A DNA stretch of 64,000 nt from Dictyostelium discoideum (GCA_000004695.1 CM000154.2:256001-320000), one strand, 5' to 3'. Counted from the first letter of the stretch, positions 3,377 through 62,003 are shown. The notes: generated from the letters alone by a model not told the origin. Made by a program: numbers and translations.

Positions 3377-3921
3377 TTATAAAATTAAAAATGAAATTAA
3401 AATTGAAATTGCTAAAATTAAATATGAAAAAGTAAAAGAAGAAATGGCATTATTACAAATTACAAGAACTGTACAACTACCATCATTAAATTTGTGAAAT
3501 GAAGCATATGTACAATCTGGATTATCATAAGAATTATCTTGATCATTAATTGGGTATTGAATTGAATCTCCTTCAGTGAATGTACCAGATAATAAGAGCT
3601 CTTTTCCAGTTTCATTATATGACATATCAACTGTCCAAACTTGAATCTTTTCTGGATAATTTGGAATTGTATAATCATTGTAACTTGAACCAGATTTTCC
3701 ATAATCTTCAAAATATTTTGCACCACAATAACACTATAAATATAAATTAAAATAATTAATTTAAAAAAATCTTTTTTTATTTTTTCTACATCAATATTAA
3801 TTAATTTTAAAAAACTTACTTCATCACTGCAATAGCCAACCTTCAAATCAACTGATGCATTTACATTATATAAAAATACGGATAATATTAAAATAATTAC
3901 AAGTGAAAATGAATATTTCAT
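3377..3921 (-). CDS. Small secreted Cys-containing protein with a hydrophobic C-terminus (GPI-anchor-like). 2 exons: about 3818..3921 and 3377..3725
   Basis: ORF track 3460..3921 starts MKYSFSLVIILILSVFLYNVNAS (signal peptide). A GTAAG donor lies on the minus strand at about 3815 (revcomp cttacttc) and a ...tttatag acceptor at about 3726. Exon 2 ends ...SFTFSYLILAISILISFLIL*. Confidence 0.45.
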
Positions 3922-4566
3922 TTTTTTTTTTATTTTTTTTTATTTTATTTTTTTTTATTTGTTTTACAAGTTTTTATTTTTTATTTATTGTTTAAAATAA
4001 ATGAAATGAAAAATGGAAAAACGCCCCTTAAATAACAAAAAAATAAAAAAAAAAAGAAAACAAAATCAAAAACAAAAACAAAAAAAAAAAAAAAAAATTA
4101 TAATAAAAAAACAAAAGAAAAAAAACAAATTAAATATCTTCACCATTTTGTTTCTTTTTTTTTTTTTATTATAATAAAATAAAAAGATATTTTTTTTTTA
4201 TGACAGGTTAAAACAAGGTTTCATCAAAAATATCTTTTTTTATTTTTTTTTTAATTTTATTATTTTTTTTTTTTTTTGGATTCAAAAAAATATCCTAAAA
4301 AAAAAAAGTAATTTCAGAGAAAACTTAAAAGTAAATATTATTTGGCTTTAAATTTAACTAATGACACATAACATCAAATTACATCATCTGAGAATCATTT
4401 TTTCTGATACCAAAAAATTAATAATTTAAATTAAACACTTAAAAAAAAATAGTGAAAGTTTTTAAAAAAAAAAAAAACAAATTATATATTAATCTTTTAC
4501 AATTATTATAAAAAAAAAGTGTTTAAATTATTTATTTATTAATTTATTTTAAAAATTTTACTTCAA

Positions 4567-39391: not shown

Positions 39392-41778
39392 TTATTTCTT
39401 TGATTGTTTTTCTTGTTTTTTTGCAGTTGGTTTTGGATTGACTGGAGCAGCAACTTTTTCAACTTTTTTGAATGGATAAAGAGCAGCACCAGCTGGTTTA
39501 ATTGGACCAGATGGAATATAGATTAAAATGTATGGTTTAACACCATCACCAACTTGATCAACATTAAAGAAACCTCTTCTCTCAAATTGAATTTTATCGT
39601 TAAGTTTGAGAGTAAGGATATTTTCATCAGTGAAAGCTTCAATTTCAAATTTGGAGTTTTTATTGGTGAAAGTATCGAGATCATCACCATCTTCTAATTT
39701 TGGTTTAGTGATGATATAATCGTAATCTTGGAGGACAACTGTGACAGTGTCAGCACAATCAGATGATAACCAACTGAGTTTTTTATCGGTCTTCTTTACA
39801 TCACCTTCCAAGTGGAGTTTACCAGTCATGGATACAACATCACCATTTTCGTTACGTTGTAAAGTTTCAACGATGGCATTACCCCAATTCATGAGAGTAA
39901 CTTCTTCACCCTCTTTAATTTGATTACAATCATCACCTTCAAGGAGGAGATTATTACTGAATGTAACTTTTTTAGTACCCATTGATGGGTCCTTTGCATA
40001 TTTGAGACAATCCTTGACCTCTGGTAAGGTTGGACCATTGGAAAGAGTGAATTTAACGGCGGTTGCTTTAGCGATAGCGGTATAACGTGGACAAGTTGGT
40101 TCGAGTACAGCTTTGTTTCCAACGAATAATTTACCCAAATCTAAAGTGGTATTTGCTGCAGAAGCACCTTGTGAAAGGATGAATTCTTTCAAGGCTGCAA
40201 CGGTGAGACCACGACGAGTAATACCTTGAAGAGTTGGTAAACGTGGATCAGTCCAACCACTAACGAGACCAGTGTCTACAAAATGTTGAAGTTTTCTCTT
40301 TGACAATAAAACATTGAAGAAACTTAAACGACTGTAATCGGAAATGTATGGTTTATTTTCGAGATGTAAGATTTCGAGGTAATGATTGTAGAGGTTTCTC
40401 TTGTTATTGTATTCATTGGAACGAAGTGCATGGGTTATACCTTCGACTGAATCAACGATTGGACATGCAAAATCGTATAATGGATAAACCTTGTATTTAT
40501 CACCGGTACGATGATGTGGGGTTGAATTACAACGATAGATAGCTGGATCTCTGAATGCCTTATCAATATGAGCCATATCTAATTTAGCACGTAATACACA
40601 TTTTACACCTTGTTCAGTGGCTTTCTTCATTTCATCAAACATTTCCAAATTCTTTTCGACACTATTGTTACGATGAACACTTTCAATGGCATTATCACGT
40701 TCTTCAGACATTTTAACTTGTGGAGTATCATCACAATAGGCAATACCTTCTTTAATCATTTGAATTGCATAATCGTGAATTAAATCAAAGTAATCGGATG
40801 TATGTGTGATCTTTTCATATTTAATACCCAAGTTATTGATATCCTTGATGATGTTTTCGACGTATTCCTCCTTTTCTTTGGATGGATTGGTATCATCGAA
40901 ACGAATGATGATCTTACCATTGTATTTCTCTGCGTAGTAATTGTTGATGATTGCTGCTTTGCAATGACCAATATGCATATAACCTGATGGTTCTGGTGGG
41001 AAACGAGTTACAACTTTACCCTCAACTAATCCTGGTAAATTTAATGCTTCAAAATTACCAACCCATCCCATTGCTCCCTTTTGTGGTGCTACTTTTTCTG
41101 TGGTTGCTGCTGTACCTTCTGCACCTGCTTTACCACTTGCTTTGGTCTCTTTCTTACCATTGAAAGCATTATCGGCTTCAACAAATGATTCTAATTGACT
41201 TAAATATCCATACCATCTATTTAAATGTGGGATGGTTTTACCTAATTTGTTAATCTCCTCTTGAATTTCCTTTACCATCTTAATACGTGCAAATAAAACA
41301 ATATCTGCTAATGTTAAATTAAATCCAATTAAAAATGCTCTTAATGTTAAATATTCATTCATTTCTTTTAAAAATTCATTGAATTTCTCTGATTTTAAAT
41401 GAGCAAATTTATCAATAAATTCATCAATCTATAAACAAAAAAATTTATTAATATTTTAACAAAAAAAATAAAAGATTGATAGGTGTGGTAATAACAATAA
41501 AATTATTTATTATTATTTACCTTTGAAGCTGATAAAGCATTTTCACCATATAATGAAAGAGATGGTGTAGTTCTTGCTAAATATTTTGCAATGACATATG
41601 AACCTTTGAGTGAATCTTGAGTACCGACAATCGAGAATTCGGTGGAATCTAAACCTTTTCTACCAACGATTTTAACACCACCAACAACTTTTGATGTGAT
41701 AATAGCAACTAATGGAAATGTTGCTGCTAATGGTGTATCATCAAATCTTAAGATACCTGTATCTTTAGCTTTTGACAT
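39392..41778 (-). CDS. gluS: Glutamate--tRNA ligase, cytoplasmic (class I GluRS with an N-terminal GST-like domain). 2 exons: 41521..41778, 39392..41428
   Basis: HIGH motif RFPPEPSGYMHIGHCKAAIINNYYAEKYNGKIIIRFDDTNPSKE is almost identical to the eukaryotic GluRS core. KMSKS-like VLSKRKL is present. The N-terminus (exon 1 plus the start of exon 2) is GST-C-like. A GTAAAT donor lies after 41521 and a tttatag acceptor before 41428, in phase 0. The C-terminus is Lys-rich. Confidence 0.8.
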
Positions 41779-42747: not shown

Positions 42748-44499
42748 ATGCAATCACTTGCACGTTTATCTCGTACCTCTTTGGTTCAAAAGGGTCTTGT
42801 TCCACAAACCATTAAAAACTATTCATCAGTTTCACAGTATGTAATAATTTTTTAAAAATAAAATAAAATAAAAAAAAAAAAAAAAAAAAACTTAATTAAA
42901 AAATTTGATCATCAAATTATTTGATTAGTTTTTTTTTTTTTATTATTTTTATTTTTATGATATTTTCTTTTTTTTTTTTTTTTTTTTAAAAACTAAAAAA
43001 TAAAGAAAAAAAAAAAAAGAATATTTTTTACTAACTAAATATTATTATTATTATTATTTTTTTTATTTTATTAATATAGAGCTGAAATTGATAATGAACC
43101 AAGATTTTTAGAATGTTTCAAAACTTTCTTTGATAAAGCAGCTGGTTTAACCAATTTAAAACCAGGTGTTTTAAATAATATGAAAGAATGTAATGTTGCT
43201 CTCCGTGTTGAATTCCCAATCAAGAATGAACATGGTGATGTTGATATTATTGCAGGTTATCGTGCACAACATTCACACCATCGTTTACCATGCAAAGGTG
43301 GTATTCGTTTCAGTGAAGAAGTAGATCTCCAAGAAGTTATGGCCTTAGCTTCATTGATGACTTATAAATGTGCTGTCGTCGATGTTCCATTTGGTGGTGC
43401 TAAAGGTGGTGTCCGTATCGACCCAAAGAAATACACTGTCGCCCAACGTGAAAAGATCACTCGTGCCTACACTCTCCTCTTATGTCAAAAGAATTTCATC
43501 GGACCAGGTGTCGATGTACCAGCTCCAGATATGGGTACAGGTGAACAAGAAATGGCATGGATTCGTGATACCTATCAAGCTTTCAACACCAACGATGTTG
43601 ATTCAATGGCTTGTGTCACTGGTAAACCAATCTCATCAGGTGGTATTCGTGGTCGTACCGAAGCTACTGGTCTCGGTGTTTTCTATGGTATCCGTGAATT
43701 CCTTTCCTACGAAGAAGTCTTAAAGAAGACTGGTTTAACTCCAGGTATCAAAGGTAAATCCATTGTTATCCAAGGTTTTGGTAATGTAGGTTACTTTGCC
43801 GCCAAATTCTTTGAACAAGCTGGTGCTAAAGTTATTGCCGTCGCCGAACACAATGGTGCCGTCTACAACGCCGATGGTCTCAACATTGATGCCCTCAACA
43901 AATATAAACTCCAACACGGTACTTTCATTGATTTCCCAGGTGCCACCAACATTGTCGACTCTGTCAAAGCCTTAGAGATCCCATGTGATATCTTAATCCC
44001 AGCTGCCCTCGAAAAACAAATCCACATTGGTAACGTCGCCGATATTCAAGCTAAATTAATTGGTGAAGCTGCCAACGGTCCAATGACCCCACGTGCTGAC
44101 CAAATCCTCCTCAATAGAGGTCATGTCATCATTCCAGATCTCCTCTTAAATGCTGGTGGTGTCACTGTATCATACTTTGAATGGTTAAAGAATCTTTCTC
44201 ACGTTCGTTTCGGTCGTTTGAACAAGAAATGGGAAGAATCCTCAAAGAAATTATTATTAGAATTTGTTGAATCAACCGTCAACAAGAAATTATCAGAAGC
44301 TGAAAGAAGCTTAATCATCCATGGTGCTGATGAAATCGATATCGTTCGTTCAGGTCTCGAAGATACCATGCAAAATGCTTGTGCTGAAACCAGAAAGACT
44401 GCAAATGAAAAGAACACTGATTACCGTTCTGCCGCTTTATACAATGCTATCATGAAGATTAAAGCTGTCTATGAATCATCTGGTAATGTCTTCTCTTAA
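42748..44499 (+). CDS. glud1: Glutamate dehydrogenase, mitochondrial (GDH). 2 exons: 42748..42836, 43080..44499
   Basis: Exon 1 (MQSLARLSRTSLVQKGLVPQTIKNYSSVSQ) is a mitochondrial presequence ending at a GTATGT donor. The acceptor atatag at 43079 joins in phase 2+1. Exon 2 contains GYRAQHSHHRLPCKGGIRFSEEVDLQEVMALASLMTYKCAVVDVPFGGAKGGVRIDPKKYT, nearly identical to animal GDH1, and the NAD(P)-binding GFGNVG. Confidence 0.85.
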
Positions 44500-44792
44500 A
44501 TATTTTAAAAAAACCCTTTTAAGTTACGCAAAAAAAAAAAAAAAAAAAAATCCAATACAAGTTATATTAAAATAAAATGAAAATAATAGATTTAATATTG
44601 TAAAAAAAAAAAAAAAAAAATCATCAAAATCAAATAATTTTGTTTAATTTTAAATTTTCTTTTTATTATTCTTCCTTAATCTATTTTTAATTTTATTATT
44701 TTTATTTTTTTATTTTTTAATATCAGCTAATCATTTCTGATATTGATTAATTTAATTAAAAAAATTGTTTTTTTTTTATTTATTTCTTAAAA

Positions 44793-46173
44793 TTAAAAAG
44801 TAATTACAAAAACAAAAAATAAAATAATGAATAGATAACCAGTTATTGATTGAGTTATTTTAAATGATGAGTTACAAAATAAATTTCTTTCAAATGCAAA
44901 TTTCCCACAATCATCACTTTCTTTAATATTGTAATCATTAATATTTTCGCACATTATTTTTCTACAATTTTTTGAAAGACAGGATTGTGATGATAATTTA
45001 TTATCTACTAATGAGCACTTATTGTCGTATGCACAGATTTCCAATTCGTCCGAATATATCAATTTCATTGTTTTTAGTGGGGAAATTGATTGATAACATT
45101 CATTATCTGAACAACTACATCTTTCAAAGTCTAAACACTCGTTAAATGTGGCATTTGGATTACATGATCTTAGGCTTGGTTCTACGTATTCAATACAAAT
45201 ATCTTTTGAGCACTAAAATAATTATAATAATAATAATAATAATAATGATAATAATAGTAATAATAAAAAGTTAAATATATTTTCATAATAATATTTTTAC
45301 TTTTTTTACAGACTACCTACATATAGTCCTTTATTGTAATCACAAAAATTGTAAGTAGCAGAACAATCAGCACCTAATCCAAGAGGTTGTTTTTTAGTAC
45401 AAACACTATTGTTACAATCCAATCTACCTAAACAATCGTCTGGAGAAGTGCACGATTCACCCTCTAATTTTATATTTTCACAAGAACAGTTTGAATTTGT
45501 TGAACATAAACAAAATTCATTATATTTGCAATTTGCATTTATTTTATTCCATCCATCACAGTTTTCAGAAGGTTTCAATGTGCATACATCATTAATACAA
45601 GCAAGTTTATTAGTTGAACAATCAGAATCTAATTTACAATCTTCACCTAATGTTGCAAACCCATAGTCTAAACATCTGTAAACATTTTCTTTATCCAAAA
45701 GACATAAAGTACCTAAAAAAATTGGTTATATTAATTTAATTACCCTTTTTGAATCCATTTTAGGTAATTATTATTTGAAAAAACAATAACTTACCAGCAA
45801 TACATAATTTTTCACCAACTTTACATTCATCACCCTGTCTCAAGTATTTATTGCATTTCCCAGTTTGATTTGATGTGAGAGAAGAGTTATAAAGGCAAGT
45901 TGTATCATAGCTACATTTTCCTTTATTAGTTCCACACTTATATTTTAACAGTTATTATTATTATTATTATTTTTTATACAAAAATAAAATATTTAATATC
46001 TTTTTTTTCTATTTATTTTATTTATTCAATTATTTTATTTGTTTATTTTATTTTATTTTAAAATTATTTGATCCACTTACAATATCATTTTCTTTTAAAC
46101 AATTTGGACAACTACTATCTACAACACTGTAAAATAATACTAAAAAAAATAGCAGAACCAAGTTTATTTTCAT
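44793..46173 (-). CDS. Cys-rich secreted protein with a GPI-anchor-like tail, array member 1 (about 349 aa). 4 exons: 46081..46173, 45795..45936, 45321..45712, 44793..45212
   Basis: All junctions are phase-checked: signal-peptide exon (MKINLVLLFFLVLFYSVVDSSCPNCLKENDI, GTAAGT donor), a Cys-rich exon 2, exon 3 (ORF 45306..45698, about 24 Cys), and exon 4 (ORF 44793..45068 extended to the acceptor at 45213) ending in the hydrophobic tail GYLFIILFFVFVITF*. Confidence 0.6.
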
Positions 46174-46539
46174 TTTTTATGTTTTCTTTTTTTTTTTAAA
46201 AAAAAAAAAAAAAATATTGATCTATTTTTAAAATTTTTTTTTTTAACCACCTTTCCTCTTTTTTCAAAGAAACAACATATCTTACTTTTTCAAATTTTTT
46301 AAACGCCCCATAAAAATAAAAACAAAAAAAAATAATTTTATTGGTAGATATTTTTAATTATTTGAAAAAGGTTTTTAAGAAATCAAAAAAAAAAAAAAAA
46401 AAAAAATAAAAAAAAAAAAAAAAAAAAAATAAAATAAAATACAAAATATTATTATTTTAATTTATTCATTTTAATTTTTTTTACTAGTAATAAAAGTAAT
46501 CACAAAAACAAAAAATAAAATAAAGAATAAAGAAGTTAT

Positions 46540-46917
46540 TGGCTGGGTGAGTTTAAATGAAGAATTACAATATAAATTTCTATAAAATACATCCTTTCCA
46601 CAATCATCACTTTCTTGAATACCTTAACTATAAACTAACGTACTACACACTGTTCTTCTGCAATTTCTAACAACACAGGAATTTACACCTAAATTGTAAC
46701 CATCCAATGAGCACTTATTATCAAATGTACACTTATCCAAATCGTCAGAATAATAATATTTTCCCATTTTTGGTGGGGATAGTTCATAGAACATTTTCCA
46801 TTTGAAAAATTACAAGTTTGAAGGGATGGGCATTGATCAAAAGTAGAATTAGGATTACATGATTTTGTTCTTGGTCTACATATTCAATACAAATATCATC
46901 TGAGCACTAAAATAATA

Positions 46918-46962
<45 letters not shown>

Positions 46963-47975
46963 AGGTTAATAATATTTTAATTAAAAAAAGTGTCTTATTT
47001 TTGGTGACTCGAAAAATTAAAAAAAACAAAAAAAAGAAAAAATTTAGATATTTATTTTCTTAAAATAAATTATTCTTCAGAATGCGAGTGGTGTGCAGGC
47101 AACGTGGTTTTTTTTCCAATTATTTGATTAGTTTTTATTTTTTACCTTTTTTTTTTATTTATAACACTCGTTCTGATTTTATTATTATTAAAAAAAAAAA
47201 AATATAAAAGTTAATAATATTTTAATTTTTTTAATTTTATTATTATTACTTACATATAATCCTTTATTGTAATCACAATTATTAATAGAGCAATCAGCAC
47301 CTAATCCAACTAGTTTTGGTTTAAAGCAAAAACCATTTTTACATGACATTTGACCAAAACACTGGCCTAAGGAAGTGCACGATTCATCCTTAAATTTTAT
47401 TTTTTTACAAGAATCATCTACACGATATTCATCATAATTGCAATTGGAATTCCGTCCATCATAATTTTCAGAAGGTTTCAATCTACATACCTTTTTAATA
47501 CAATCAGGTTGATTAGTTGCACAATCTGTATCTAATTCGCAATATTACCCTAAAGTTGCGAATTTATAGTATAAACATCTGTAAACATCATTTCTATACA
47601 AAAGACATGAAGTGCCTGACAAAAATTGATATTTTATTAATATAATTATATGTATATATTTAATAATATTACTATTCTATATTTCTTTAATTTAACTTAA
47701 AAATGTTTATATTTAAAACTTACCTTCTACACATAAATCATCTAAATTACCAAATCCACATTCATAACATGTTTCAAGTATTTTCTACATTTCCTAATTT
47801 GATTTGATGGTAAAGAAGAGTTTATTAATTTTTTATTTTTTATTTTTTTAATAAATCTTGTTTTATTTTTATGATTTACATACAATATCATTTTCTTTCA
47901 AATTGGACAACTACTATTTACAACACTGTAAAAAAATAATATAAAAATAAATACCGGAATTAAGTTTCATTTCAT
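46540..47975 (-). pseudogene. Array member 2, degenerate copy
   Basis: Exon-4-like sequence at 46545..46900 has stops and frameshifts. The exon-3-like ORF 47188..47481 is truncated. The exon-1-like region at 47880..47975 reads MK* (stop at codon 3). Confidence 0.5.
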
Positions 47976-48507
47976 TTTAGGTTTTGAATAATAAAAAAAA
48001 AAAAAAAAAAATTCTTTTTTTTATACAAAACTTTCTTACTCTTTAAAATTTTTAAGCCATCGCTAAATTAATAAAAAATATAAAAATAGATAGCAATAAT
48101 AGTTTTTCTTACTTAAACTTTATTTTTTAGGAATATTATATCTTTTTTTTTTTTTAAAAATACAATCATTCACCTTTAAAAAAAAATAACTTATTCCCTA
48201 GAAAGCAAGAATAATATTATTCAATTTTTATATCAAAATTTTAAAAAACACAAACATTTACTTTCAAAAAAAGGGTTTGAATTTATTTTTTGATAAAGTA
48301 GTTAAAAAAAAAAAAAATTTAAACATTTTTCAATTAACTATTAATTACAACACAAAAAAAATAATTGCAAGCTAAAATTAGATTTTTTTTTTTTTAAATC
48401 TTATTTTTTATATTTTATTTTTTTCTGATTTTTAAAGGCCCCTTAAAAATTGAAAAAAAAAAAAATTGGTAGGTTTTTATAATTATTTTAAAGGGGTTTT
48501 AAGAATT

Positions 48508-48553
<46 letters not shown>

Positions 48554-48646
48554 AAAAAAGTTTTAGTCAATTTATTACTAGGAAAAATATTTATTTGTTT
48601 ATTTTATATATTGTTTGTTATTTTATTACTGGAAATAAAATTAAAT

Positions 48647-49960
48647 TTAAAAAGTAATAACAAAAACAAAAAATAATACTACAAATAAAGAGGTTATTGA
48701 TTGAGTGAGTTTAAATGAAGAATTACAGTATGAATCTCTAAAAAATGCATTCTTTCCACAATCATCACTTTCTTTAATATTATAACCACCTACTAAACCA
48801 CTACATATTTGTTTTTTACAATGTTTTGAAATACAGGATTTTGAGTTATATCTATAACCATCACCCATTGAGCACTTATTATCAAATGCACACTTATCCA
48901 AATCGTCTGAATAATAATATTTATCCATTTCTGGTGGAGTTGGATAAATTGTATAACATTCTTCATCTGAACAACTACATATTAGATCGGATGGACATTG
49001 GTTAGATGTAGCATTAGGATTACATGATTTTGTGCTTGGTTCAACGTATTCAATACAAATATCATATGAGCACTAAAATAATGATAATAAAAGAATTAAA
49101 TTAAAAAAAAAACAAGTTAATAATATTTTAAATTGTTTAATTTTAATTTTATTATTACTACTTACATATAATTCTTTATTGTAATCACAATTATTAATAG
49201 AGCAATCAGCACCTAATCCAACTAGTTTTGATTTAAAACAAACATTATTTTTACATGACATTTTACCAAAGCATTGGCTTGAGGAAGTGCACGATTCACC
49301 CTCAAATTTTATTTTTTTACAAGAATCATCTATACAATATTCATCATAATTACAATTTGAATCCGATCCATCACAATTTTTAGAAAGTTTCAATCTACAT
49401 TCCTTATTAGCACAAGAAAGTTGATCAGTTGCACAATCCGTATCTAATTCACAATACTCACCTAAAGTCGCGAAACTATGGTACAAACATCTTTTAACAT
49501 TATTTTTATCCAAAAGACATGAAGTGCCTGACAAAAATTGATATTAAATTAATATATAATAATATATTGCTATTATATTACAATATATTATTTTAATATA
49601 ATTTTTAAAAATTATAAAACGATAACTTACCACCAACACATAAATCTTTAAAATTACTAATTCCACATTCATCACCCTCTCCCAAGAATTTGGTACATTT
49701 TCTAATTTGACTTGATGGTAGAGAAGAGTTTTTAAAGCAAGTTGTACCATAGCTACAAGTTCCTATAGTCCCACACTTTTTTTTTTAATCAATTAAAATT
49801 ATTATTAATTATTTTTTTTTTTTTTTAATTAATTTTATTTTAATATTTTTAAAGATTTACATACAATATCATTTTCTTCCAAACAAATTGGACAACTACT
49901 ATTTACAACACTGTAAAAAAATAATATAAAAATAAATAATGGAAGTAAGTTTTTTTTCAT
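48647..49960 (-). CDS. Cys-rich secreted GPI-anchor-like protein, array member 3. Exons about: 49865..49960, 49630..49770, 49166..49527, 48647..49072
   Basis: Same architecture as member 1: signal exon MKKNLLPLFIFILFFYSVVNSSCPICLEENDI plus a GTATGT donor; ORFs 49073..49534 and 48647..48928 form exons 3 and 4; a GTAAGT donor lies at 49161-49165. Confidence 0.55.
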
Positions 49961-50317
49961 TTTTAGTTTTTGAATAATAAAAAAAAAAAAAAAAAAAATT
50001 CTTTTATTTATACAAAAATTCAAAGGCATTACTCTTAAAAATTTTTAATCAATCCTCTAATTTTTCAAATTTAAACTTTGCTTTCTTGGAAAATTTATAA
50101 TAATATCTTTTTTTCTCTTAAAAAAAAAAAAAATAACAAAAAAAGTGCTTGTCCTTTGTTCCAGGGAAAAATATCTTTTTTAAAAAAAATAAAAAATAAA
50201 TTTTTTTTTTTTTAGGGTTTGTTTATTTGAAAAAAGTTTTAAAAAAAAAAAAAAAATAAACTTTTTTTTCACACCAATCATTTTTTAACTAATAATTGTA
50301 ATTACCCATTTTTTTAT

Positions 50318-50348
<31 letters not shown>

Positions 50349-50748
50349 ACCCAAAAAAGAGTTGTTTTATTTACAAAGAGTAGTTTTATCAGTTCTGCTA
50401 CAATAAATTTTAATCACATTTTTTCTTGGTAAATTTTAAAAAAAAACAAAAAATAAAAAATAAAAAAAAAAAAACAATCAATTTTTAATTTAATTATTTA
50501 TATTTTATTTACTTATTTTTTTTATTGAAATTATATTTTATGTTTAAAATATATATCAACCATTAATGGGTAACAGAAAGAATTTCAATTTTTTTTAAAA
50601 AAAAATTACATTATGATCATTTATAAAAAACCATTTTAATATAATTATGATCATAAAAAACCATTTTAATATAATTAATTAAAATAAAAAATAAAAAATG
50701 ATTATTTAAATTTATTTTATTTTAATATTTTTATTACCAGAAATAAAA

Positions 50749-51902
50749 TTAAAAAGTAATTACAAAACCAAAAAATAAAATAATGAATAAAGAAGTTATT
50801 GATTGAGCGAGTTTAATTGAAGAATTACAGTATCTATCTCTAAAAAATGCATTCTTTCCACAATCGTCACTTTCTTTAGCACCAAAGGTATCTGAAAAAC
50901 CACATATTATTTCTTTACAATTTTTTGAAACACAGGATTTTGTATTATAAAAAAGTGATTCATCCAATGAGCATTTATTATCAAATGCACACTTATACAA
51001 ATCGTCTGAAGCTTTAAATCTTTCCATTGGGGTTGGTAAATATCTATAACATTTTTCATCTGAACAACTACATTTTTGAAGTTCTGAGCATTGACTATAA
51101 GTAGCATTAGGATTACATGATTTCTTTATTGGTTCAAAATATTCAATGCATATATCATCTGAGCACTTAATAATAATAATAATAATAATATTAAAAAAAA
51201 AAAAAAAAAAGTTAATAATATTTTAATTTATTTAATTTTATTTATTAACTACTTACATATAAATCTCTATTGTAATTACACACATCATATTTGCAATTAG
51301 CACCTAATCCAAGGAGTTGATTAGAGCAAACATTATTTTTACAAGACATTGGACCTAAACACTGGCTATTATAAATGCACGATTCACCCTCCAATTTTAT
51401 TTTTGCACAAGAATTTCCTAAACAATATTCATCATAATTACAATTGGAATTCAAACCATTACAATTTGCAGAAGGTTTCAATCTACATTCATTGTTATTA
51501 CAAACAAGTTCATCAGTTGCACAATCAGTATTTAATTCACAATATTCAGTTAAAGTTGCGAATTTATTTGAAAAACATCTGTAAATTTTATTTTTATCCA
51601 TAAGACATAAAGTACCTGACAAAAATTGATATTTTTTATTAATATATATGTATTAAAATTCTATATATTTTTTTAATATAATTTTTAAAAATTATAAAAC
51701 TATAACTTACCCTCAATACATAAATCTCTTAAATTACCAGCTCCACATTCATCACCCTCTCTCAAGTATTTGGTACATTTTAAATTTTGATTCGATGGTT
51801 CATAAGTATTATTAAAGCAAGTTGTATCATAGCTACACATTTCATGATTGTTAATTCCACACTTTATTTTTTATAATCAATTAATATAATTTCAATATTA
51901 AA

Positions 51903-51933
<31 letters not shown>

Positions 51934-52057
51934 ATTATTATTTTATTATTTTAAATTATTTACATACAATATCATTTTCTTTCAAACAAATTTGACAACT
52001 ATTTACAACACTAAATAAAAATATAAAAATAAATAATGGAATTAAGTTTCTTTTCAT
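50749..52057 (-). CDS. Cys-rich secreted GPI-anchor-like protein, array member 4
   Basis: Signal exon (MKRNLIPLFIFIFLFSVVNSCQICLKENDI) at about 51963..52057. Exon 3 is ORF 51245..51622 and exon 4 is ORF 50749..51027 extended to about 51168. All are in frame. Confidence 0.55.
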
Positions 52058-52655
52058 TTTTAGTTTTTGGATAATAAAAAAAAAAATTTATAAAAAAAAT
52101 TATTTACTTTTTTTCCTCTCCCAGTTTTTCTTTTGGGAAAAAAAAAAAAAAAAAAATAGAAAAAAAAAAATTACTTATTCTTCTTTATTTTCTAGGGAAA
52201 AATATCTTTATAAAAAATAAAATTAAAAAATTAAAAAAAAAGAAAAAAAAAAAAGAAAAAAAAAAAGAAAAAAAAAAATTACTTATTCTTTATTTTATAG
52301 GAAAAATATATTTTTAAAAAATAAAATAAAAAAATAAAAAAATTAAAAATAAAAAAAAAAAAAAAAAAATTTTAGGAGTAAGAATTCTTTGATTACTGAA
52401 AAAAAAAAATCTACAGGTTGGTCATTTCTTTTAGAATAATTTTAAAATCATATTTTCTTGATAAATAAATAAAAAAATAAAAAAAAAAAAAAAAACTAAA
52501 ATAAAATAAAATAATTTTAAAAACACACAACCAATACATATGAAATTTATATTAAAAATGGTACACACATCTAACAATTGTAACTAAGTGATATTTATTT
52601 TAAAAAATTAATAATAAAAAATAATTGAATTCAAAAGATATTGTTTTAATAGTTT

Positions 52656-53111
52656 TTAAAAAATAATTTGAAAAACAATAAATAAAACAATAAGTAAATA
52701 GGTTAATGACTGAGAGATTTTAGATGAAGAGTTACTACTGCAAAATAATAAATCTGCTCTAAGTTCTTCCTTTCCACAATCATCTTCTTCTTTAACCTTG
52801 TAATCACCAACATAACGTTGACAAATTTCTTTTCTACAATGTTTTGAAAGACAGGACTCTGATGAATATAAATTAACATTAAGTGAGCACTTGTTATCAT
52901 ATGCGCACTTTTCCAATTGGGATGATGCAATCATTTTGAGACTTTCTGGTGGATATATACCAGACTGATAACATTCATGATCTGAACAACTACAAGTTTG
53001 ATATGCTGAGCATTCGCTAACTGTAGCATTTGGACTACATGATTTTGGACTTGGTTGTACAAATTCTTGACAAATATTATCTGAACACTATAATAATAAT
53101 AATAATAAAAT

Positions 53112-53181
<70 letters not shown>

Positions 53182-53654
53182 CAGTTTAAAAAACTTACAT
53201 ATAATCCTTTATTGTAATCACAAAAACCATTATAATAACAATAATCATTATTGTTGTCACAATTATAAGTACCCAAACAACTACCACCTAATTCAATGAG
53301 TTGTGGATTGCCACAAACTCCGCTATTACATGTCAATCCACCTAAACAATCTCGTGAATAATTGCATGGTGAACCTTGTGTATTAATTTTTTGACATACA
53401 CAATTTGAACTTGCTGTACAATAACAATATTCATCATAATTGCAACTTTCATCAATATCATGACAGTGTGTATATTTAGTAGGGTCATGTGAACATACAT
53501 TATTAATACAATCAAGTTGATCAACACAATCAGATTGTAATTGACACTGTTCACCAAGAGATCTAAAACCGTAATCCAAACATCTATAAACATTACTTTT
53601 ATCCAAAATACAACTAGTACCTGTTAAGAGGAAATTTGATTTATATTTAAATTA

Positions 53655-53689
<35 letters not shown>

Positions 53690-53876
53690 TTGTGACATAC
53701 CAAGAATACATAAATAAACACCTGGATCACATTTATCACCACTTTTCAAGTATTTGGTACATCTTGGGGAAGAAGAGTTATTGCTCAAGCATTTTGTATC
53801 ATCACTACATGTTCCTCCTGAGTCACACTATTTCATTTTTATTTTTATTTTTATTTTTTATATTAATAATATTAAT

Positions 53877-53924
<48 letters not shown>

Positions 53925-54036
53925 CAATTTATTTACATACAATGTCATTTTCTTTCAAACAATTTGGACAACTACTATTTACAACATTGTAAAATAAAAT
54001 TAATAGAATAATAAATAAAATTGAGTTAATTTTCAT
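52656..54036 (-). CDS. Cys-rich secreted GPI-anchor-like protein, array member 5
   Basis: Signal exon MKINSILFIILLILFYNVVNSSCPNCLKENDI at about 53943..54036. Exon 3 is ORF 53181..53606 and exon 4 is ORF 52656..52934 extended to about 53090. Confidence 0.55.
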
Positions 54037-54647
54037 TTAAGTTTTTTTTTTTTTTTTTATAACTTTATGATAATAAAAATAAAATAATATTGGAGATAAT
54101 AAAGAATATCGATAAAAAAAAAAATTAAAAAAAAAAAAAAAAGAAAAAAAAAAAGAAAAAAAAAAAAAATTAAAAACCAAAAAAACCAATTTTTATACCC
54201 CCTTAACACATCAATTAATAATTATATTTTTCAATATTATTTGAAAAGCCACGTGTTTTAATATCGTCTTCATTTCCTAAAAAAACAATATCTTTTTTTT
54301 TTTTTTTTTTAATTCAACCAAACAATTTTCAATTTACAATTTCTTTCAAACAAAAAAAAAAAAAAAAAAAAGCTATTACCAAAAGAAATTAATGAAAATC
54401 AAAACTAAAATTAAATTAGATTTTTTTTTTTTAAATTTTTTTTTGTTAATTTTAATTTTGATTTTCATGTATTTTTTTTAAAAAATATCTTATTTTTTTT
54501 TTTTCGCACTAAATATCAAATTATTAATAAAAAAAAAAAAAAAACAAATTTGGCCCGAACTATGAAGTAAATTGTTATTTAATTTTTAAATAATCAAATA
54601 ATTGTTTAAAATAAGTTTAAATTGTTTTTGTTATATAAATTATTTTT

Positions 54648-54707
<60 letters not shown>

Positions 54708-54839
54708 GTATTTTAACACCAGTTATACATAGTGTATTTTAGTTGTCCCATGCCAAAATTTAGTGTGAAAACTCACTGCCTTTTAGATAGAAAAATTTTC
54801 AAAAAAAAATACAAAAATAAGAGATAAAATAATGAATAT

Positions 54840-55500
54840 ACACACCAGGTATCAAATCATTTGAATAATATTTAGCATTTTCTATTGGATTTGATCGTGC
54901 ATTATAACATTTGCTATCAGAACAGCCACAAGTTAGATAGCCGGGACATGTATTATTTGTATCATTTGGATTGCATGAACTTAAGCTTGGTTCGACATAT
55001 TCTATGCAAATATCATTTGAGCACTAAATAATAATAATAATTATATTAATATTAATAATAATAATAATAATAATAAATGTTAATTATTATTGTACCATTT
55101 TATTTGAATTAAACTCCATTTCAAAACATACATTAATCCTTTATTATAATCACAAACACCGTTTCCTGAACAATCTCCACCTACTTCAAAGAGTGACCTT
55201 TGAACACAACTATTTCTTTTCCCACATATCAAACTACCTAAGCAATTATTTGTTTTAGTACAATTTTCACCCTACAACTTGATTAATTTGCAAGAACTAC
55301 TGTAACCTACATTAGGGGTATATCCAGTTGTTTCACAATACTCGTTATAATTGCAATTGGCGTCATTACTGGCACAATCTTTTGAATACAATTTACATTT
55401 TAAACAAACAAATTCATCAGTAGCACAATTTAAATTTAATTCACAGTTTTCACCAAGAGTTGAAAACTCAAAATCCAAACATTGGTAAACTTTTTTTTTT
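54840..55500 (-). pseudogene. Array member 6, truncated and degenerate (exon 3/4-like only)
   Basis: Exon-4-like sequence at 54840..55020 and exon-3-like sequence with frameshifts (only ORF 55272..55478). No signal-peptide or exon-2 equivalents lie upstream. Confidence 0.45.
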
Positions 55501-56970
55501 ATCCAAAAGACATTTCATTTTATTTTTTTTTTTTTTTCTTTATTTATTAAATCCAAAATAAAAATTTTTTGAAAAAAAAAACTAACAACCAATCCACGGT
55601 CAATCTAAATTTTAAAATTTTTTTTTTTATTTTTTTAATCTTTTCCTAGATTCCCAAAAAAAAATACGTTTCCAAAGCATAATTCCCCTAAAAAATTTTT
55701 AAAAAAAATATTTTAGAAACACAAAAGATATTTAAATTTTTTCCCTAGGTTTCTAAAAAAAAAAGAAAAAAATAAAAACATAATTCTTTTTTTTTTTTAT
55801 TTTTTTTTTTTGATCTTATCATCTTTTGGTGATCAAACCAATAATTTCTTAAATCTTTTTTTTTTTTTTTTTAATGCTTTTTTTTAATTATTTTATACTC
55901 TTAACAATTAATAAAAAGAAAAAAAAATAAAAAAAATTTCTAACTTTTGATTTTAATCATTTTCTTGTAAATGACAGAATAATTCTCTTTATTTAAAATA
56001 ATCCAGTAGAATATCAATTTTTTTTTTTAAAAAAAAAAAAAAAACATTTTTAAAATATTATTAGTCCTTTTCGTTTTATATTTTTTTAAAATATTATTAG
56101 TACTTTTCATTTAATATTTTTTTATATTGAACTGGTATAAAAAAAGTTTTTGGGTTGAAAAAAAAAAATTGGTGAGGAAAAAAAAAAAAAAAAATTAAAA
56201 ATAAATTAAATTAGGTAAAATTAAAATCAAATTAATAAACCTGTTCATTATTTAGTTTTCATTGAAAAAATTTTAATACAAATAAAAAAAAACAAATAAT
56301 GAATGAGTATAAAAAAAAAAATTTATGAGGAAAAAAAAAATTAGTGGGAAAATAAAGATTTTAAAAAGCAAAAAAAGAAAAAAAAAAAAAAGGTGGAAAA
56401 TTCCACAATAAAATTTTAACTCAATATAATAAAAATGCCTCAATTAATAATAATGTTTTAAAATTTCAGATGTATCATTCATCCATATGATGTTTCTGAA
56501 ACCAATAAATTCCCTTCACATGGACTTCTGATGATCCTCTTGATATAGCCATCAACCTTCAAGATTGTTATGAATATAGTATACAAGTTTGAATGATAAT
56601 TTTTTGATCACTTTAAACCTACCAAAAAACACAACACCATAAACAAATATATTTTTAAAATAATTAAACCAAATTAATATATGTATTATTATTTTTTTTT
56701 TTTCCACACATATTTTTTTTTAATAGGAATTTTTTTTTTTATTCCAGTTCATTTCCTATTTTTTTTTTTTACAAAATGGTTATAAAAACTTTATATTAAA
56801 ATTTAATATTATTATTATTAGAGTTTTCCAATTATTTTTTCCAGTATACTATTATTTATATTTTTAATATTAAGATGATAGAAATGAATTTATATTTTTT
56901 ATTTATTTATTTATACAACTTTTTATTAAATTTTATAAAAAATTAATTTTTATTTTTTTTAATTCAATTA

Positions 56971-57780
56971 TTAAAATAAATCTTTTAATCTTGATAATAA
57001 TAATGATCTACTATAGAGTGTATCACTTGATAATAAAATTTGTTTAATTAAAATATTCATATGACTCATATAAAGGGCATCAGTTAAAATGAATTGGGAA
57101 TAAAGGTTAACTTCATTAATAAAATTTGGCATTAAATTTGCAATTTCATTGAGAGGAGTTTTCAAATTATTTAAATGTGAAGAAACTGATAATACTGATT
57201 TAATGACCAATTCATAATTACTGATTACAACTTGATAGGTGGCAACATTTGGTGAATTTGGTGATAAGGAATTTTTTGTATTATTCATTAAAGTTGCTAA
57301 TGTTATAGCTGATTGTTTAACTGAATCAATATTTGTAATTAAATTATTAATTGATGATGAAATTGTATTAAATCTACTTGTATCCATATTTGTAAATTTT
57401 GTAAGAGTATTTAAATAACCAACTGTATTATTTAAACTAACAATTCCCAAATTATTTGCATTATTATATAAGGAAATTAAATTTTGATAATGTGATGATG
57501 CTCCAAATAAATCATTATTTGATAATGCAATTATATTATTTAAAAAATATTTACTAAATGTAATATTAAACACATCCGATGGGTTTTCAACTTGAATTGA
57601 ACTTGCCAAAATTAAAATACTTGTTTGATCATCATTAAGAAGTAACGAAGCACGTGAAAAATCAGCCGGTGTCATAATACTGGAGCCTGTAATTGGGACA
57701 TAATTTGAAATTAGTGAATTGGAAAAACTGAAAAGAGAAACTAAATAAATTAAAAAGAAAATTGAATAAAATTTAAACAT
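56971..57780 (-). CDS. Secreted Asn/Ser-rich protein (269 aa), unknown function
   Basis: ORF with an N-terminal signal peptide (MFKFYSIFFLIYLVSLFSFSNS) and many N-x-S/T sequons. Confidence 0.5.
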   Translation of the reverse strand: MFKFYSIFFLIYLVSLFSFSNSLISNYVPITGSSIMTPADFSRASLLLNDDQTSILILASSIQVENPSDVFNITFSKYFLNNIIALSNNDLFGASSHYQNLISLYNNANNLGIVSLNNTVGYLNTLTKFTNMDTSRFNTISSSINNLITNIDSVKQSAITLATLMNNTKNSLSPNSPNVATYQVVISNYELVIKSVLSVSSHLNNLKTPLNEIANLMPNFINEVNLYSQFILTDALYMSHMNILIKQILLSSDTLYSRSLLLSRLKDLF

Positions 57781-58531: not shown

Positions 58532-58843
58532 TTATGATTTATCTAGTTCTGCACTATCTTCATATTGATGTTCATATGCTATTGTTGATAAATTAATATC
58601 AGGAGAAACTGCTTTTTCATCTTCTTCTGCAACTGCATTTAAATTATCATCAAAACTACTCTTATCATTAAATGAAAATGTATCTACTAAATATTTCTTT
58701 GTCATATATCTTTTATAAACCAATGAAATTATAACTAGTGATAAAATTGATGCTGTTCCTAAAATAGTTAAAATAATAACAATATTCCTTGTTCTATAAT
58801 TTTTTTGTGGTTTTCTTGTATGAATTGGAATTTCTGATGTTCC

Positions 58844-58885
<42 letters not shown>

Positions 58886-59396
58886 AGTTGTTGTTGTTGT
58901 TGTTGTTGTTGTTGTTGATATTCCTGTAGTTGTTGATACTCCTGTTGTTGTTGGTATATTAGTTGGTGCTTCTGTTGGTGAACTGCATGGATAATAATCA
59001 GTATTAATTTTAGTATCATCTTGATAGAAATTGCATTCTTTGCAACCACAAATAGTATTATTTGATATTGTCATAAGTTTAAGGTATACGGTAGAGTTAT
59101 TACCAATGATTGGAGATTGACTAAAAGATAGATTTAAATTGGTTAAAGTTAAAAAACTATTGATAGAGTTGAATAAACGATTTGAAGAGATTAAAGGAAA
59201 AAACAGTTTAAACTCAAATTCCAGTGTACTATTTTCTATATAGACTAAATCATTTTCAATTGTATTTGATGGTGAATACTTTAAATAATCCTTTAAAAAT
59301 AAATTTGATTCTTTTAGTACTGTAAATGCTGATTCAAATTTATATTGACCATATGTTGAATTTTGGTTAATTGCAATACTACTACTACTACTTCTA

Positions 59397-59429
<33 letters not shown>

Positions 59430-60475
59430 GTAGTAATATTTGAGAATTTAATATTTTCTAATCTTGTTAAAACTGATGATGAAAAAGGAGAGAAACATTT
59501 ATAAAAATATATAAATGTGGATAATTGATTATTAAAGAAATTAAAATCTAGTAATCTAACAGTTGAGTTGATTGATAATATGAATGGACTTGAAAAATAA
59601 CTATTTGATATTGACTCCAACCCTGAATTTGACACATCACCAGACCTTATGAATATAAAAGGCGTTGACAAGAACTCACTATTCTCCACATCTAAAATAT
59701 AAACAATACTGCCACCCACTATATAAATTGGTGAAATAAAATCACCATTGGATACCAATGCATTTGTTGATGGTGATGGTGATGGTGGTGACCTTAAGTT
59801 ATAACCAGTTGTTGAAATAAAGTAAACCAATATTGAGTCTTTTTTATAAACAATTTCATCAGCATCACTGTCATTTATCGGATAAATATTAATTATACTA
59901 CTTGAAGAAATTATATTTACAAATCTAAAAAATATTGCAACATATTTTGAACTATCTTGTGGAGTTGGGTTTGTTTCTTGATTGATGTTAATTTTCACAA
60001 TTGTTTGATCCCAATTTGTAAAATTAATACCTGCAAAAAGGAACCGTCTCTGTGTTGCACACGGGTAGGTTGAATTTGGTTGAACTGCTTCTTGAATGCT
60101 AAGAAATGGCTGTGTTGTCGAGCTGCCACCTCCATCAATGTTTACATTGGTCGTGTCACTACTTGATTTAATCCATAAAATACCACAATAATTATATAAA
60201 TTTCCTAATGTAACCGCTGTTGTAATTGATGATTGGTTGATATCGCCACTAATGATAATGCTATTTGGATTATTTTGATTTTCAATTTTTGATAATAAAA
60301 TCGCTCTATTCCCAGCATCCTCTAATGATGTACATACTGGTTCATCTGCTAAACCACACTCTTCAAATGAATTATAATTTCTTTCAACATTATAATTAAC
60401 TGCAATATCAAAAGAAATCACAAAAGTATTATAATATAAAATAATTAATATATAAAAATAAATTTTTTTAATCAT
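58532..60475 (-). CDS. Type I membrane glycoprotein: signal peptide, large N-glycan-rich ectodomain, poly-Thr mucin-like stalk, one TM helix, acidic cytoplasmic tail
   Basis: The ORF track entry 58532..60613 most plausibly starts at the internal MIKKIYFYILIILYYNTFVISF (ATG at about 60475). A (ACA/ACT)n-encoded T26 stalk precedes the TM helix IVIILTILGTASILSLVIISLV and the tail KRYMTKKY...EDEKAVSPD. Confidence 0.6.
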
Positions 60476-62003
60476 ATATGATAATTTTATAATTCTTTTT
60501 TTTTTTTTTTCAGTATTGGTTTGAATTAAAAAAAAAAAAAGTTTTATCAAAAAAAAAAAACTTTTTTTTTTGATTTTTTTTTTTTCAAATAAAATCTCTT
60601 TGGTAATTACCAAAAAATTTTAAAAAAAAAAAATAAAAAATTAATGGTGGGTTTTTTTTTTTTTTTTTTAATTCAAACCAATTGTTTGATCCCAATTTGT
60701 AAAATTAATACCTGCAAAAAGGTTGAACACAATCTTTTACTTAAAATGAACATTGTATATACAAGTATTTACTTTAAAAATTTATATTTATGGTTTTGAT
60801 TATTTTAATAATAAAATAAAATAAAATAAAATAAAATAAAATAAAAAATTATTTAAGTAACAAAATAAATCAATGACATTTGAAGAGGTTTTTTTTTTAT
60901 TTTTTTTTTTTATTTACCCATGGTCATATTAAAGTAATTAAAATTCTCTTTTTTGTTTATTATTATTTTTTTTTTTTTTTTTTCAAAAAAATTTTGTTTT
61001 TAAGATTTTTTTTTTTTTTTTATAGTTATAAAAATAAACTGATAAATAATGAAGTGTTGTGGATGAGAAAAAAAAAACTAAAAAAAAAAAAAAAAAAAAT
61101 ACAAGTTATTTTTTTTTTTTTTTCACAAAATTATTTTTTATAACGAATATTTGACAAAACATATTAGGTTCTTGAACTTTTTTTTTTTTTTTGGGTGGCA
61201 GGAGATTTTTGCAGAAAAAAAATTGGTAAAAATAGACAACAACCTCATACTGATGTCCAAGATATTTTTTTTTTTTTTCTTTTACAAAAAATTAATTTTT
61301 ATTTTTAATTTTTTTTTTTGATAACTTATAATTAAATAAAGATTTTCAATTTTTTACATTATTCAAAATTATCTTGTTGCACTTATAAAAGTGGGGAAAA
61401 AAAATAAAAAAAAATTGAAATTTTAACCCTTATGAAAAATAAAAAAATCTAATACAAAAAATGTTGTAAAAAAAAAAAAATAATAAAAAGAAAACAACAA
61501 AAATATTATGAACTGATTAAAGTTAAAATAAAAGTTAAAAAAGTAACAAACATTGCTCATTTGAGATCGAATTCAACAATTGTTTAATCTTTCTTCCCAA
61601 ATCTATTTAAACTTTTGCTCTGAGCCATTCTAATTGTGATTTAGACCAAATTATTTTTCTTAAAACTCAGTTATCTGGTTTGGATGTCCCATGCCAAAAT
61701 TACTATGGTAATTCACCAGCCATATTAATTTCAGCATATAACACCTGTTTTTAGGCTGAAATTAATATGTTAAAATTGTCCTGCTGAAATTAATATGTCT
61801 AAATGAAATTAATATATAAATACAAAAAAAAATAAATGAATAAAAATCACCAAAAAAAAAAAAATCTTTTTGTTCATTCCCACAATTACAAAAAATGAAA
61901 ACTAATTATTTTTTAATTTATTTAATTTTATTTAGTTATTTATAAATATTAATTATTACAATATATAATATAAAAACAATACAAACTTTGTTTTGTTGAT
62001 TTG

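Follow-up and report, generated by a model that had tools for sequence, protein, structure and literature searches.

We analyzed a window of 64,000 nucleotides from chromosome 5 of Dictyostelium discoideum AX4 (GCA_000004695.1 CM000154.2:256001-320000; positions are counted from its first nucleotide), in which six paralogous units lie head-to-tail on the minus strand between positions 44793 and 55516. On balance, we read this tandem array as a set of genes for fast-evolving secretory-pathway glycoproteins of ~350 amino acids that are probably glycosylphosphatidylinositol (GPI)-anchored binding proteins of the cell surface. As we propose it, each protein would begin with a signal peptide that is cleaved off, followed by a small N-terminal cap with 6 Cys, three 8-Cys modules of ~60 amino acids in tandem, a Cys-containing helical domain close to the membrane, and a C-terminal signal that is most likely exchanged for a GPI anchor. 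Each 8-Cys module would be built from two homologous 4-Cys beta-hairpin halves, with the nearest solved fold being of the Dickkopf/colipase type, and the mature protein may form a disulfide-locked, N-glycosylated stalk anchored to the outside of the plasma membrane.

The units are spaced by 1.8-2.1 kb, with ATG-to-ATG distances of 1979, 2097, 1985 and 1802 bp. We assembled exons using anchor strings on the minus-strand reading of 56000-44500, and searched the whole window with the four resulting spliced proteins using tblastn. This search recovered six copies, with all matches confined to 44793-55499 and with summed E-values between intact copies of ~1e-52 to 1e-82. Four copies are uninterrupted four-exon open reading frames (ORFs) of 338-358 amino acids with GT...AG introns: gene F (member 1; 348 amino acids; 46173-44793; exons 46173-46081, 45936-45795, 45712-45321 and 45212-44793), gene D (member 3; 342 amino acids; 49960-48647; exons 49960-49865, 49775-49631, 49527-49166 and 49072-48647), gene C (member 4; 338 amino acids; 52057-50749; exons 52057-51968, 51861-51711, 51615-51257 and 51165-50749), and gene B (member 5; 358 amino acids; 54036-52656; exons 54036-53941, 53827-53701, 53620-53199 and 53087-52656). 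Exons 1 to 4 of the intact copies are 90-96, 127-151, 359-422 and 417-432 nt long, and their lengths modulo 3 (0, 1, 2 and 0, respectively) are the same in all four. The introns of the array are 80-144 nt long, and their phases are likewise the same in the four intact copies.

The search and the spliced models bear out two claims made in an earlier reading of the same DNA (referred to here as the first-pass annotation), namely that six copies lie head-to-tail on the minus strand, and that they share a conserved four-exon layout with conserved phases. The motifs quoted in that annotation are all present, each in a subset of genes B, C, D and F: SCPNCLKENDI in B and F, CNYDEYC in B, C and D, and both GESCTS and GLGADCS in D and F; the C-terminal ending ...FFVFVITF is present in D and F. 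Other details required revision. The arrangement described for the end of exon 1, SCPNCLKENDI followed by a GTAAGT donor, is found in gene F, but the donor is GTATGT in genes B, C and D. Exon 3 contains 16-20 Cys rather than the ~24 first estimated. Lastly, the signal peptides had been described as diverged along with the other exon sequences, but exon 1 is the best conserved exon, with 81-93% nucleotide identity between AX4 copies as compared to 64-81% for the other exons. The window is strongly AT-rich (GC content mostly 15-30%), and an Rfam scan of 44000-57000 matched no RNA family. An element of sequence AGATATTTTTCCCT[G/A]GAA occurs at 50159-50176 and 52190-52207, ~150-200 bp upstream of the start codons of D and C, with a looser second copy further upstream of C. 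At least two matches to it were found in 7 of 100 shuffles; the element could be a remnant of a duplicated promoter.

Genes B and F are transcribed and spliced as modeled. An RNA-derived contig, L005 (from run SRR24091724), aligns to gene B in four blocks with junctions at exactly 53941, 53827/53701, 53620/53199 and 53087, before running on into Illumina adapter. A second RNA-derived contig, L006 (from run SRR24091726), which also ends in Illumina adapter, aligns to gene F over the junction of exons 3 and 4 (45321/45212), and its predicted product, P0017, matches the four-exon F model through all three intron positions to residue 289, after which a homopolymer indel shifts the frame. Three of the database members sit on ~1-kb sequencing-run contigs that are too short to hold introns. 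The first-pass annotation had named cDNA evidence as what could refute its exon structure; by this measure, all three introns of gene B are supported by L005, and the splicing of gene F is supported by L006 together with P0017.

The intact genes are already represented in the AX4 reference annotation, where XP_637205-637208 cover all four. Gene B is identical in sequence to XP_637208/Q54KB3 (database record P0010), and gene F is identical to XP_637205/Q54KB6 (database record P0004). Both carry the product name 'paramecium surface antigen repeat-containing protein', which is probably an automatic label, and misleading. The counterparts of gene C (XP_637207, DDB_G0287483; 327 amino acids) and gene D (XP_637206; 333 amino acids; we compared D with record P0015) differ from our models at intron 2, where they use a non-consensus donor and a later acceptor; as a result, they lack 11-12 residues, GT[LS]CL.DKN..[YK]R, that include one Cys. 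These two reference models are probably mis-spliced. We prefer the new models of C and D because they use a consensus GTAAGT donor (GTAAGT...CAG in D), because the splice position matches the RNA-proven site in gene B, because they regain Cys82, a residue shared by at least 90% of 53 relatives, and because the resulting Cys count is even (38). For gene C, we also prefer the new model because P0016, from a newer automatic annotation of an AX4-like assembly, includes the GTLCLMDKNKIYRC segment. The newer automatic annotations merge array members, including pseudogenes, into single proteins: P0016 itself has 1147 amino acids and combines C, D, E and F, and P0011 has 492 amino acids and combines A and B. 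A protein of 675 amino acids from isolate ACTFIZ, P0154, is the same kind of automatic fusion of neighboring copies.

The two remaining units are the pseudogenes E (member 2) and A (member 6). Together with the spliced ORFs of B, C, D and F, their lesions agree with the first-pass count of four intact and two decayed copies. Pseudogene E, delimited by three-frame translations and tblastn fragments, extends from ~47975 to 46492 on the minus strand. Its exon 1 contains a stop at codon 3 and a frameshifting deletion, the 5' part of exon 2 is deleted, exon 3 contains an in-frame stop and has lost two of 16 Cys (C->Y and C->R), and exon 4 contains several frameshifts and has lost its stop codon. 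Intron 3 of pseudogene E is enlarged by a duplicated stretch of ~245 bp, with a direct repeat at 46945-47002 and 47190-47247 (58 nt, 83% identical); these repeats bracket a unique, less AT-rich core that includes, for example, CCACGTTGCCTGCACACCACTCGCATTCTGAAG at 47075-47107, a sequence that occurs once in the window. Pseudogene A extends from ~55516 to 54853 on the minus strand, as judged from translations and from tblastn matches at 55499-55134 and 55023-54853. Exon 3 contains a frameshift in a run of A and an in-frame stop, only the first ~57 codons of exon 4 are present, and we found no trace of exons 1 and 2 in the window sequence. Between pseudogene A and gene B, just past the point at which exon 4 of the pseudogene breaks off, lies an imperfect inverted repeat (54356-54504; arms of 59 nt, 78% complementary, with a loop of 31 nt), the core of which is a near-perfect arm of ~18-23 nt, ...ATGAAAATCAAAA[C/T]TAAAATTAA....

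The predicted proteins have the features expected of secretory-pathway cargo. Exons 1 to 4 of the intact copies encode 2, 6, 16-20 and 14 Cys, respectively, for totals of 38-42. By inspection, each intact protein starts with M-K-x-N, followed by 14-16 hydrophobic residues and then V-V-N/D-S ahead of the first Cys; the residues at -3/-1 are small, and the cleavage context is of the VVNS/S type. This stretch reads as an N-terminal endoplasmic reticulum signal peptide of the kind that GPI-anchored proteins require. In gene F, exon 1 (46173-46081, minus strand) encodes the putative signal peptide MKINLVLLFFLVLFYSVVDS and then SCPNCLKENDI; the homologous exons are at 54036-53941, 52057-51968 and 49960-49865. 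All nine proteins of alignment A2 share both defined residues of a sequon, N48-x-S50; in copy C, the sequon lies one residue earlier. A second sequon, N229-A-T, is present in all four intact window copies, and there is a further N-S-S at the tail. The C-terminus of the intact copies consists of C-N-S-S, an 8-residue spacer, 15 hydrophobic residues and a stop codon, leaving no cytosolic tail; residues C322, S324, S325, K327 and S331 (F numbering) are invariant. In gene F, this GPI-signal-like segment (44868-44793, minus strand) comprises a candidate attachment site at C322-N-S-S, the spacer FKITQSIT and the hydrophobic segment GYLFIILFFVFVITF, followed by the stop. As judged by inspection, this layout has small residues at the omega to omega+2 positions, a polar spacer in the range of ~6-10 residues, and a hydrophobic stretch in the range of ~12-20 residues that runs to the end of the protein, as in GPI C-terminal signals. 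From these features, we infer that the proteins enter the secretory pathway, are N-glycosylated, and are GPI-anchored at the cell surface. The leader and the conserved N-x-S/T sequons are consistent with the earlier description of the proteins as secreted, and the tail is consistent with the GPI-like ending that had been noticed; its design recurs in most relatives of similar length from other dictyostelid genomes.

To describe the fold, we used an AlphaFold2 model based on an alignment of 53 sequences (predicted local distance difference test score, pLDDT, 83.6; predicted template modeling score, pTM, 0.74). A model based on nine close homologues had a pLDDT of 54.8, was unusable, and was replaced by the 53-sequence model. 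The model consists of serial beta-hairpins to approximately residue 250, then helices, a low-confidence segment at residues 302-330, and a terminal hydrophobic helix. Alignment of slices with hhalign indicated that the 4-Cys hairpin units at residues 63-96, 97-126, 160-187 and 188-219 are homologous (probability 95-97%), and that three double units of ~60 amino acids (63-126, 127-187 and 188-252) are related to one another (probability 92-96%). A profile of module 127-187, when compared with PDB sequences, had two joint-best matches at E 0.011, one to Dkk4 CRD1 over the full module and the other to a 24-residue Dumpy DPY fragment. Lesser matches were to a second Dkk4 entry (E 0.03), scytovirin, LITX, draxin, toxins including MIT1, and DKK1/2 CRD2 (E ~0.4). 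The full-length profile had no match among PDB sequences even at E ≤ 10. The nearest solved folds were DKK1 CRD2, Dkk4 CRD1, the prokineticin Bv8, and MIT1. Pfam matches in the four window proteins were exclusively sub-threshold and fell at residues ~130-184, with EB and DUF7107 scoring like Dickkopf_N (PF04706); Dickkopf_N reached 25-28 bits in 2 of 10 relatives tested. None of the four window proteins matched Paramecium_SA (PF01508) at E ≤ 1. Assignment of the modules to the Dickkopf/colipase class of small disulfide-rich folds is thus supported by a signal that is weak but consistent, in that it agrees across three methods.

The array proteins can be placed in a dictyostelid family of Dickkopf/colipase-like modules that has so far been seen only in dictyostelids. 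We built a profile from nine close homologues and used it to score 1.84 billion representative proteins, obtaining 118 cluster representatives at E ≤ 1e-3, many of them 320-390 amino acids long and aligned over profile positions 1-343. Dictyostelid genomes encode at least 50 relatives of similar length. Every relative to which we could put a species name is from a dictyostelid (Dictyostelium, Polysphondylium, Acytostelium, Cavenderia or Synstelium), the species being, besides D. discoideum itself, D. purpureum, D. firmibasis, D. citrinum, Polysphondylium violaceum, Acytostelium subglobosum, Cavenderia fasciculata and Synstelium polycarpum. The Cys skeleton, which the first-pass annotation had proposed to seek in other dictyostelids, is therefore found across several genera. 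In AX4, four paralogues lie outside the array (DDB_G0291492, DDB_G0291572, DDB_G0287063 and DDB_G0290443; profile E-values of 1e-24 to 1e-43). These are dispersed single genes at other chromosomal sites and are ~25-30% identical to array members; most of them share the length class, Cys skeleton and termini, and some differ at the C-terminus, the tail of DDB_G0287063 for example being long and rich in Asn. We examined 73 relatives of 300-460 amino acids, and most of these have a hydrophobic N-terminus, 36-42 Cys, a Ser-rich site, a spacer, and a hydrophobic C-terminus of 15-17 residues. Mean column identity in the 53-sequence alignment is 21%, and conservation reaches at least 90% in 38 Cys columns. 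Based on the full-length profile match and the shared Cys skeleton and termini, we assign the array proteins to this unnamed family of ~350-amino-acid, 36-42-Cys proteins. The automatic names of the relatives include 'Dickkopf N-terminal cysteine-rich domain-containing', 'EB domain-containing' and 'paramecium surface antigen repeat-containing'.

We compared the array with the corresponding loci of sister isolates. The neighbors of the AX4 array, including a glutamate dehydrogenase (GDH) gene on its low-coordinate side, are also found beside the family in two assemblies of 'D. cf. discoideum', L001 (isolate ACTFIZ) and L004 (isolate ACTFIY). A neighbor-joining tree of exons 3 and 4 sorts 16 copies into four types. 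Read towards GDH, the order of copies is A (dead), B, C, D, E (dead), F in the AX4 window; A-type, B-type, C/D/E-type, F-type in ACTFIZ; and B-type, a 120-bp exon-4 relic, F-type in ACTFIY. The A-type copy of ACTFIZ, at 6192-7055 of L001, is apparently intact, with no stops in exons 3 and 4. D. citrinum has three copies that are ~5 kb apart. These arrangements show that the ancestral order was A-B-(C/D/E)-F, with a triplication specific to AX4 and losses elsewhere. Hence, the birth-and-death mode of evolution that had been proposed from the AX4 copies is seen directly, as gain and loss of copies between the syntenic loci of AX4, ACTFIZ and ACTFIY. A dispersed C/D/E-type member, P0003, is found in D. 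discoideum isolate ACTFIR (L003, 10001-11329) between MeaB-like GTPase and Mon2-like genes, and is ~70% identical to AX4 copies C and D. We considered extreme allelic polymorphism as an explanation for P0003, which is only 72% identical to D, and rejected it; P0003 lies at a different locus and is a dispersed paralogue.

We next estimated the ratio of nonsynonymous to synonymous substitution rates (dN/dS) for pairs of copies by the Nei-Gojobori method, a comparison that the first-pass annotation had suggested. Between AX4 paralogues, dN/dS was 0.54-0.84. Between AX4 copies and their sister-isolate counterparts, dN/dS was 0.41-0.90 (0.49-1.12 without Cys codons), with values of 0.41-0.44 for B, 0.49-0.88 for F and 0.80-0.90 for C; for pseudogene E, dN/dS was 0.59-0.95. 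Bootstrap intervals reached 1 only for pairs that involve C, E, or the two F-type copies of the sister isolates. By contrast, GDH of AX4 and the two sister isolates has a dS of 0.053-0.056, a dN of 0.001 and a dN/dS of 0.02, and the protein is 99.8% identical; array genes, only a few hundred bp away, are just 73-86% identical to their sister-isolate counterparts, a sharp local contrast in rate. An elevated mutation rate or ancient alleles, considered as a cause of the higher dS of the array (0.15-0.30, as compared to 0.05 for GDH), was set aside, with introns and flanks being similarly diverged; codon-usage constraint on GDH is the simpler reading of this contrast. Between AX4 and the sister isolates, exons have diverged about as much as introns, and divergence is greatest in exon 2, the source of most of the N-terminal cap, with 79-86% identity as compared to 87-93% for its flanking introns in F. 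In all intact copies, every aligned Cys is kept while the other residues are 42-62% identical (Fisher p 6e-8 to 2.5e-12). The disulfide scaffold is frozen and the loops are nearly free. Either diversifying selection on the loops or weak constraint would fit this pattern, which does not prove positive selection.

On the low-coordinate side of the array, GDH (43180-44499, plus strand) is followed outwards by a class-I tRNA synthetase gene (39392-41362, minus strand) and a GH18-like gene (36797-38152, plus strand). On the high-coordinate side lie two ORFs predicted to encode secreted or membrane proteins. The first has 269 amino acids and a hydrophobic N-terminus (56971-57780, minus strand); the second has 693 amino acids, contains a stretch of poly-Thr, and has a transmembrane-like segment at its C-terminus (58532-60613, minus strand). 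At the ACTFIY locus, L004, genes of matching size and order to these two ORFs lie at 3442-4248 and 924-2750.

The array proteins resemble several known systems in part. In Dkk1-4, CRD1 is the Pfam Dickkopf_N domain and CRD2 has a colipase fold; each Dkk domain has 10 conserved Cys, whereas each array module has 8. Dkks are soluble, with the architecture signal peptide-CRD1-linker-CRD2, whereas the array proteins have an N-terminal cap, three modules, a helical domain and a GPI-type signal, and belong to a family that evolves fast with turnover of copies. The array protein is not a Dkk, because its Pfam scores (14.4-19.1 bits) are below the 25-bit cut-off, its modules have 8 Cys rather than 10, its architecture is different, and it carries a membrane-anchor signal. 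Colipase, the prokineticins (Bv8 and MIT1) and colipase-like toxins are soluble single-domain proteins of ~80 amino acids with 10 Cys, whereas the array modules are concatenated and predicted to be membrane-tethered; the likeness to the colipase/prokineticin fold is weak, and is not significant by Foldseek. Surface antigens of ciliates have Cys-rich repeats and a GPI-type C-terminus, and are encoded by rapidly diverging multigene families. The array proteins are like those of Paramecium and Tetrahymena in having a signal peptide, periodic Cys-rich repeats, a GPI-type C-terminus, and a fast-diverging multigene family, but lack a Paramecium_SA match and are ~350 amino acids long rather than >2000. 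Closer in size is gp64 of Polysphondylium pallidum, a Cys-rich, GPI-anchored protein of ~340 amino acids with 36 Cys, all in disulfides, that is implicated in cell-cell adhesion; it would match the design of the array family and, as a possible member, would be one that has been studied experimentally. Two profile searches of a word-indexed database, meant to find gp64 or another relative with a name, yielded only a few distant members, none of them named.

In the explanation that we favor, the modules would act as binding 'fingers', as colipase-fold proteins do, with a role in adhesion or recognition suggested by analogy. Selection keeps the Cys skeleton fixed while the loops between Cys change at almost the pace of introns, and copies are duplicated and lost between closely related isolates by birth-and-death evolution; the binding partners (other cells, prey bacteria or matrix) may themselves be changing fast. 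Several observations weigh against this explanation. Foldseek comparison of the model with PDB structures gave nothing significant (best E 0.1), and Dickkopf_N scores of 19.1, 14.4, 15.4 and 14.8 bits for the four window proteins fall short of the 25-bit gathering cut-off. dN/dS was never significantly greater than 1, so that relaxed constraint accounts for the rate no less well than diversifying selection. No transcript contigs for C or D were seen among the database members. In a few relatives, such as P0031 and P0027, the GPI-type ending is replaced by a transmembrane segment with a basic tail or by a polar tail that is long. In the literature library searched, with gene and UniProt identifiers among the terms, no paper mentions the array genes, and searches on 'Paramecium surface antigen' in Dictyostelium and on the SRR runs found nothing relevant. 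Moreover, it is the layout of the sequence that points to a GPI anchor, and analogy that points to binding, adhesion or recognition.

We weighed four other explanations. GPI proteins can be shed, and if the array proteins were shed or lost their C-terminus, they could be soluble secreted signaling factors or antagonists, Dickkopf- or prokineticin-like, whose binding to receptors controls development. The nearest solved folds are indeed those of secreted ligands and antagonists, and a 'putative dkk' or 'DKK' is attributed to Dictyostelium in two reviews (PMC5797367, PMC4963804). We nonetheless judge this explanation unlikely: the anchor signal at the C-terminus is conserved across the family, which points to tethering at the membrane; three tandem 8-Cys modules with additional domains are not a CRD1-linker-CRD2 arrangement; and Dickkopf_N is matched only below threshold. 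Furthermore, dN/dS values of 0.4-0.9 and turnover of copies would be an unusual pattern in a developmental ligand whose receptor is fixed, and Wnt and LRP5/6 are not known to be reported in Dictyostelium, which also counts against a Dickkopf-like factor; the Wnt and DKK entries for non-metazoans in PMC2959043 agree with this. The conserved GPI-type tail, by pointing to the plasma membrane, also argues against structural components of the slime sheath, stalk tube or spore coat, in which Cys-rich proteins are cross-linked into a wall. Such a role would fit the high Cys content, repeated modules and secretory signal, and matrix and coat proteins of Dictyostelium are also Cys-rich repeat proteins; however, none of the known Dictyostelium coat or matrix repeat families in Pfam was matched at E ≤ 1, and the even Cys count (38-42) and fixed skeleton suggest pairing within a molecule rather than between molecules. 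We give this matrix role a low probability.

A function in defense or attack, in which knottin- or colipase-like fingers disable bacterial or competitor targets or membrane lipids and an arms race drives the fast evolution and the turnover of copies, seems to us quite improbable, although the structural neighbors include double-knot and colipase-like toxins and colipase itself, and both the high rates and the variable copy number are as it would predict. Alternatively, the cluster could be largely decaying, with some copies functional and the rest, such as C, drifting neutrally, so that high dN/dS reflects loss of function. Two of the six copies are dead, dN/dS for copy C is similar to that for pseudogene E, and C and D are the copies for which transcript contigs were not seen. 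However, the reading frames of C and D remain open, their splice sites match the consensus, and 38 of 38 Cys are kept even though ~38% of the other residues differ (Fisher p 6e-8), while pseudogene E has lost exon-3 Cys; and B and F are transcribed, have one-to-one counterparts in both sister-isolate loci, and have dN/dS values below 1. We therefore regard general decay of the cluster as very unlikely.

Reading the array as genes for probable GPI-anchored surface binding proteins, we can now describe the domain architecture, probable anchoring, taxonomic range and evolutionary mode of a multigene family whose members have been mislabeled or called 'hypothetical'. That the intact genes exist was known from the AX4 annotation; the models of C and D, the mapping of two pseudogenes, the transcript support for B and F, the description of domains and fold, the presence of the family in several dictyostelid genera, and the birth-and-death history are new. 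Tandem families that encode fast-evolving, Cys-rich surface proteins of the GPI type are common among protists. If the family includes gp64, the array would supply candidate adhesion or recognition molecules for social-amoeba biology. Of Wnt pathway components, Frizzled, beta-catenin, CK1 and GSK-3 are present in Dictyostelium, and DKK has been scored as absent outside animals (PMC2959043). The reference to 'Dickkopf in Dictyostelium' that recurs in reviews of Wnt-pathway evolution may need qualifying, because if the cited 'putative dkk' belongs to the array family, what is shared with Dkk is one small disulfide-rich module, and the protein is not an orthologue but a multi-module surface protein that is probably GPI-anchored. 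A bolder proposal, which we consider doubtful, is that the array and the wider family form a fast-diversifying surface recognition system of Dickkopf/colipase-type fingers that tells apart kin, species or prey bacteria. If this proposal were true, the statement that Dictyostelium has a Dkk would refer to the surface-protein family of the array, and the Dkk/colipase module would have been membrane-tethered in Amoebozoa before animals recruited it for the regulation of Wnt signaling.

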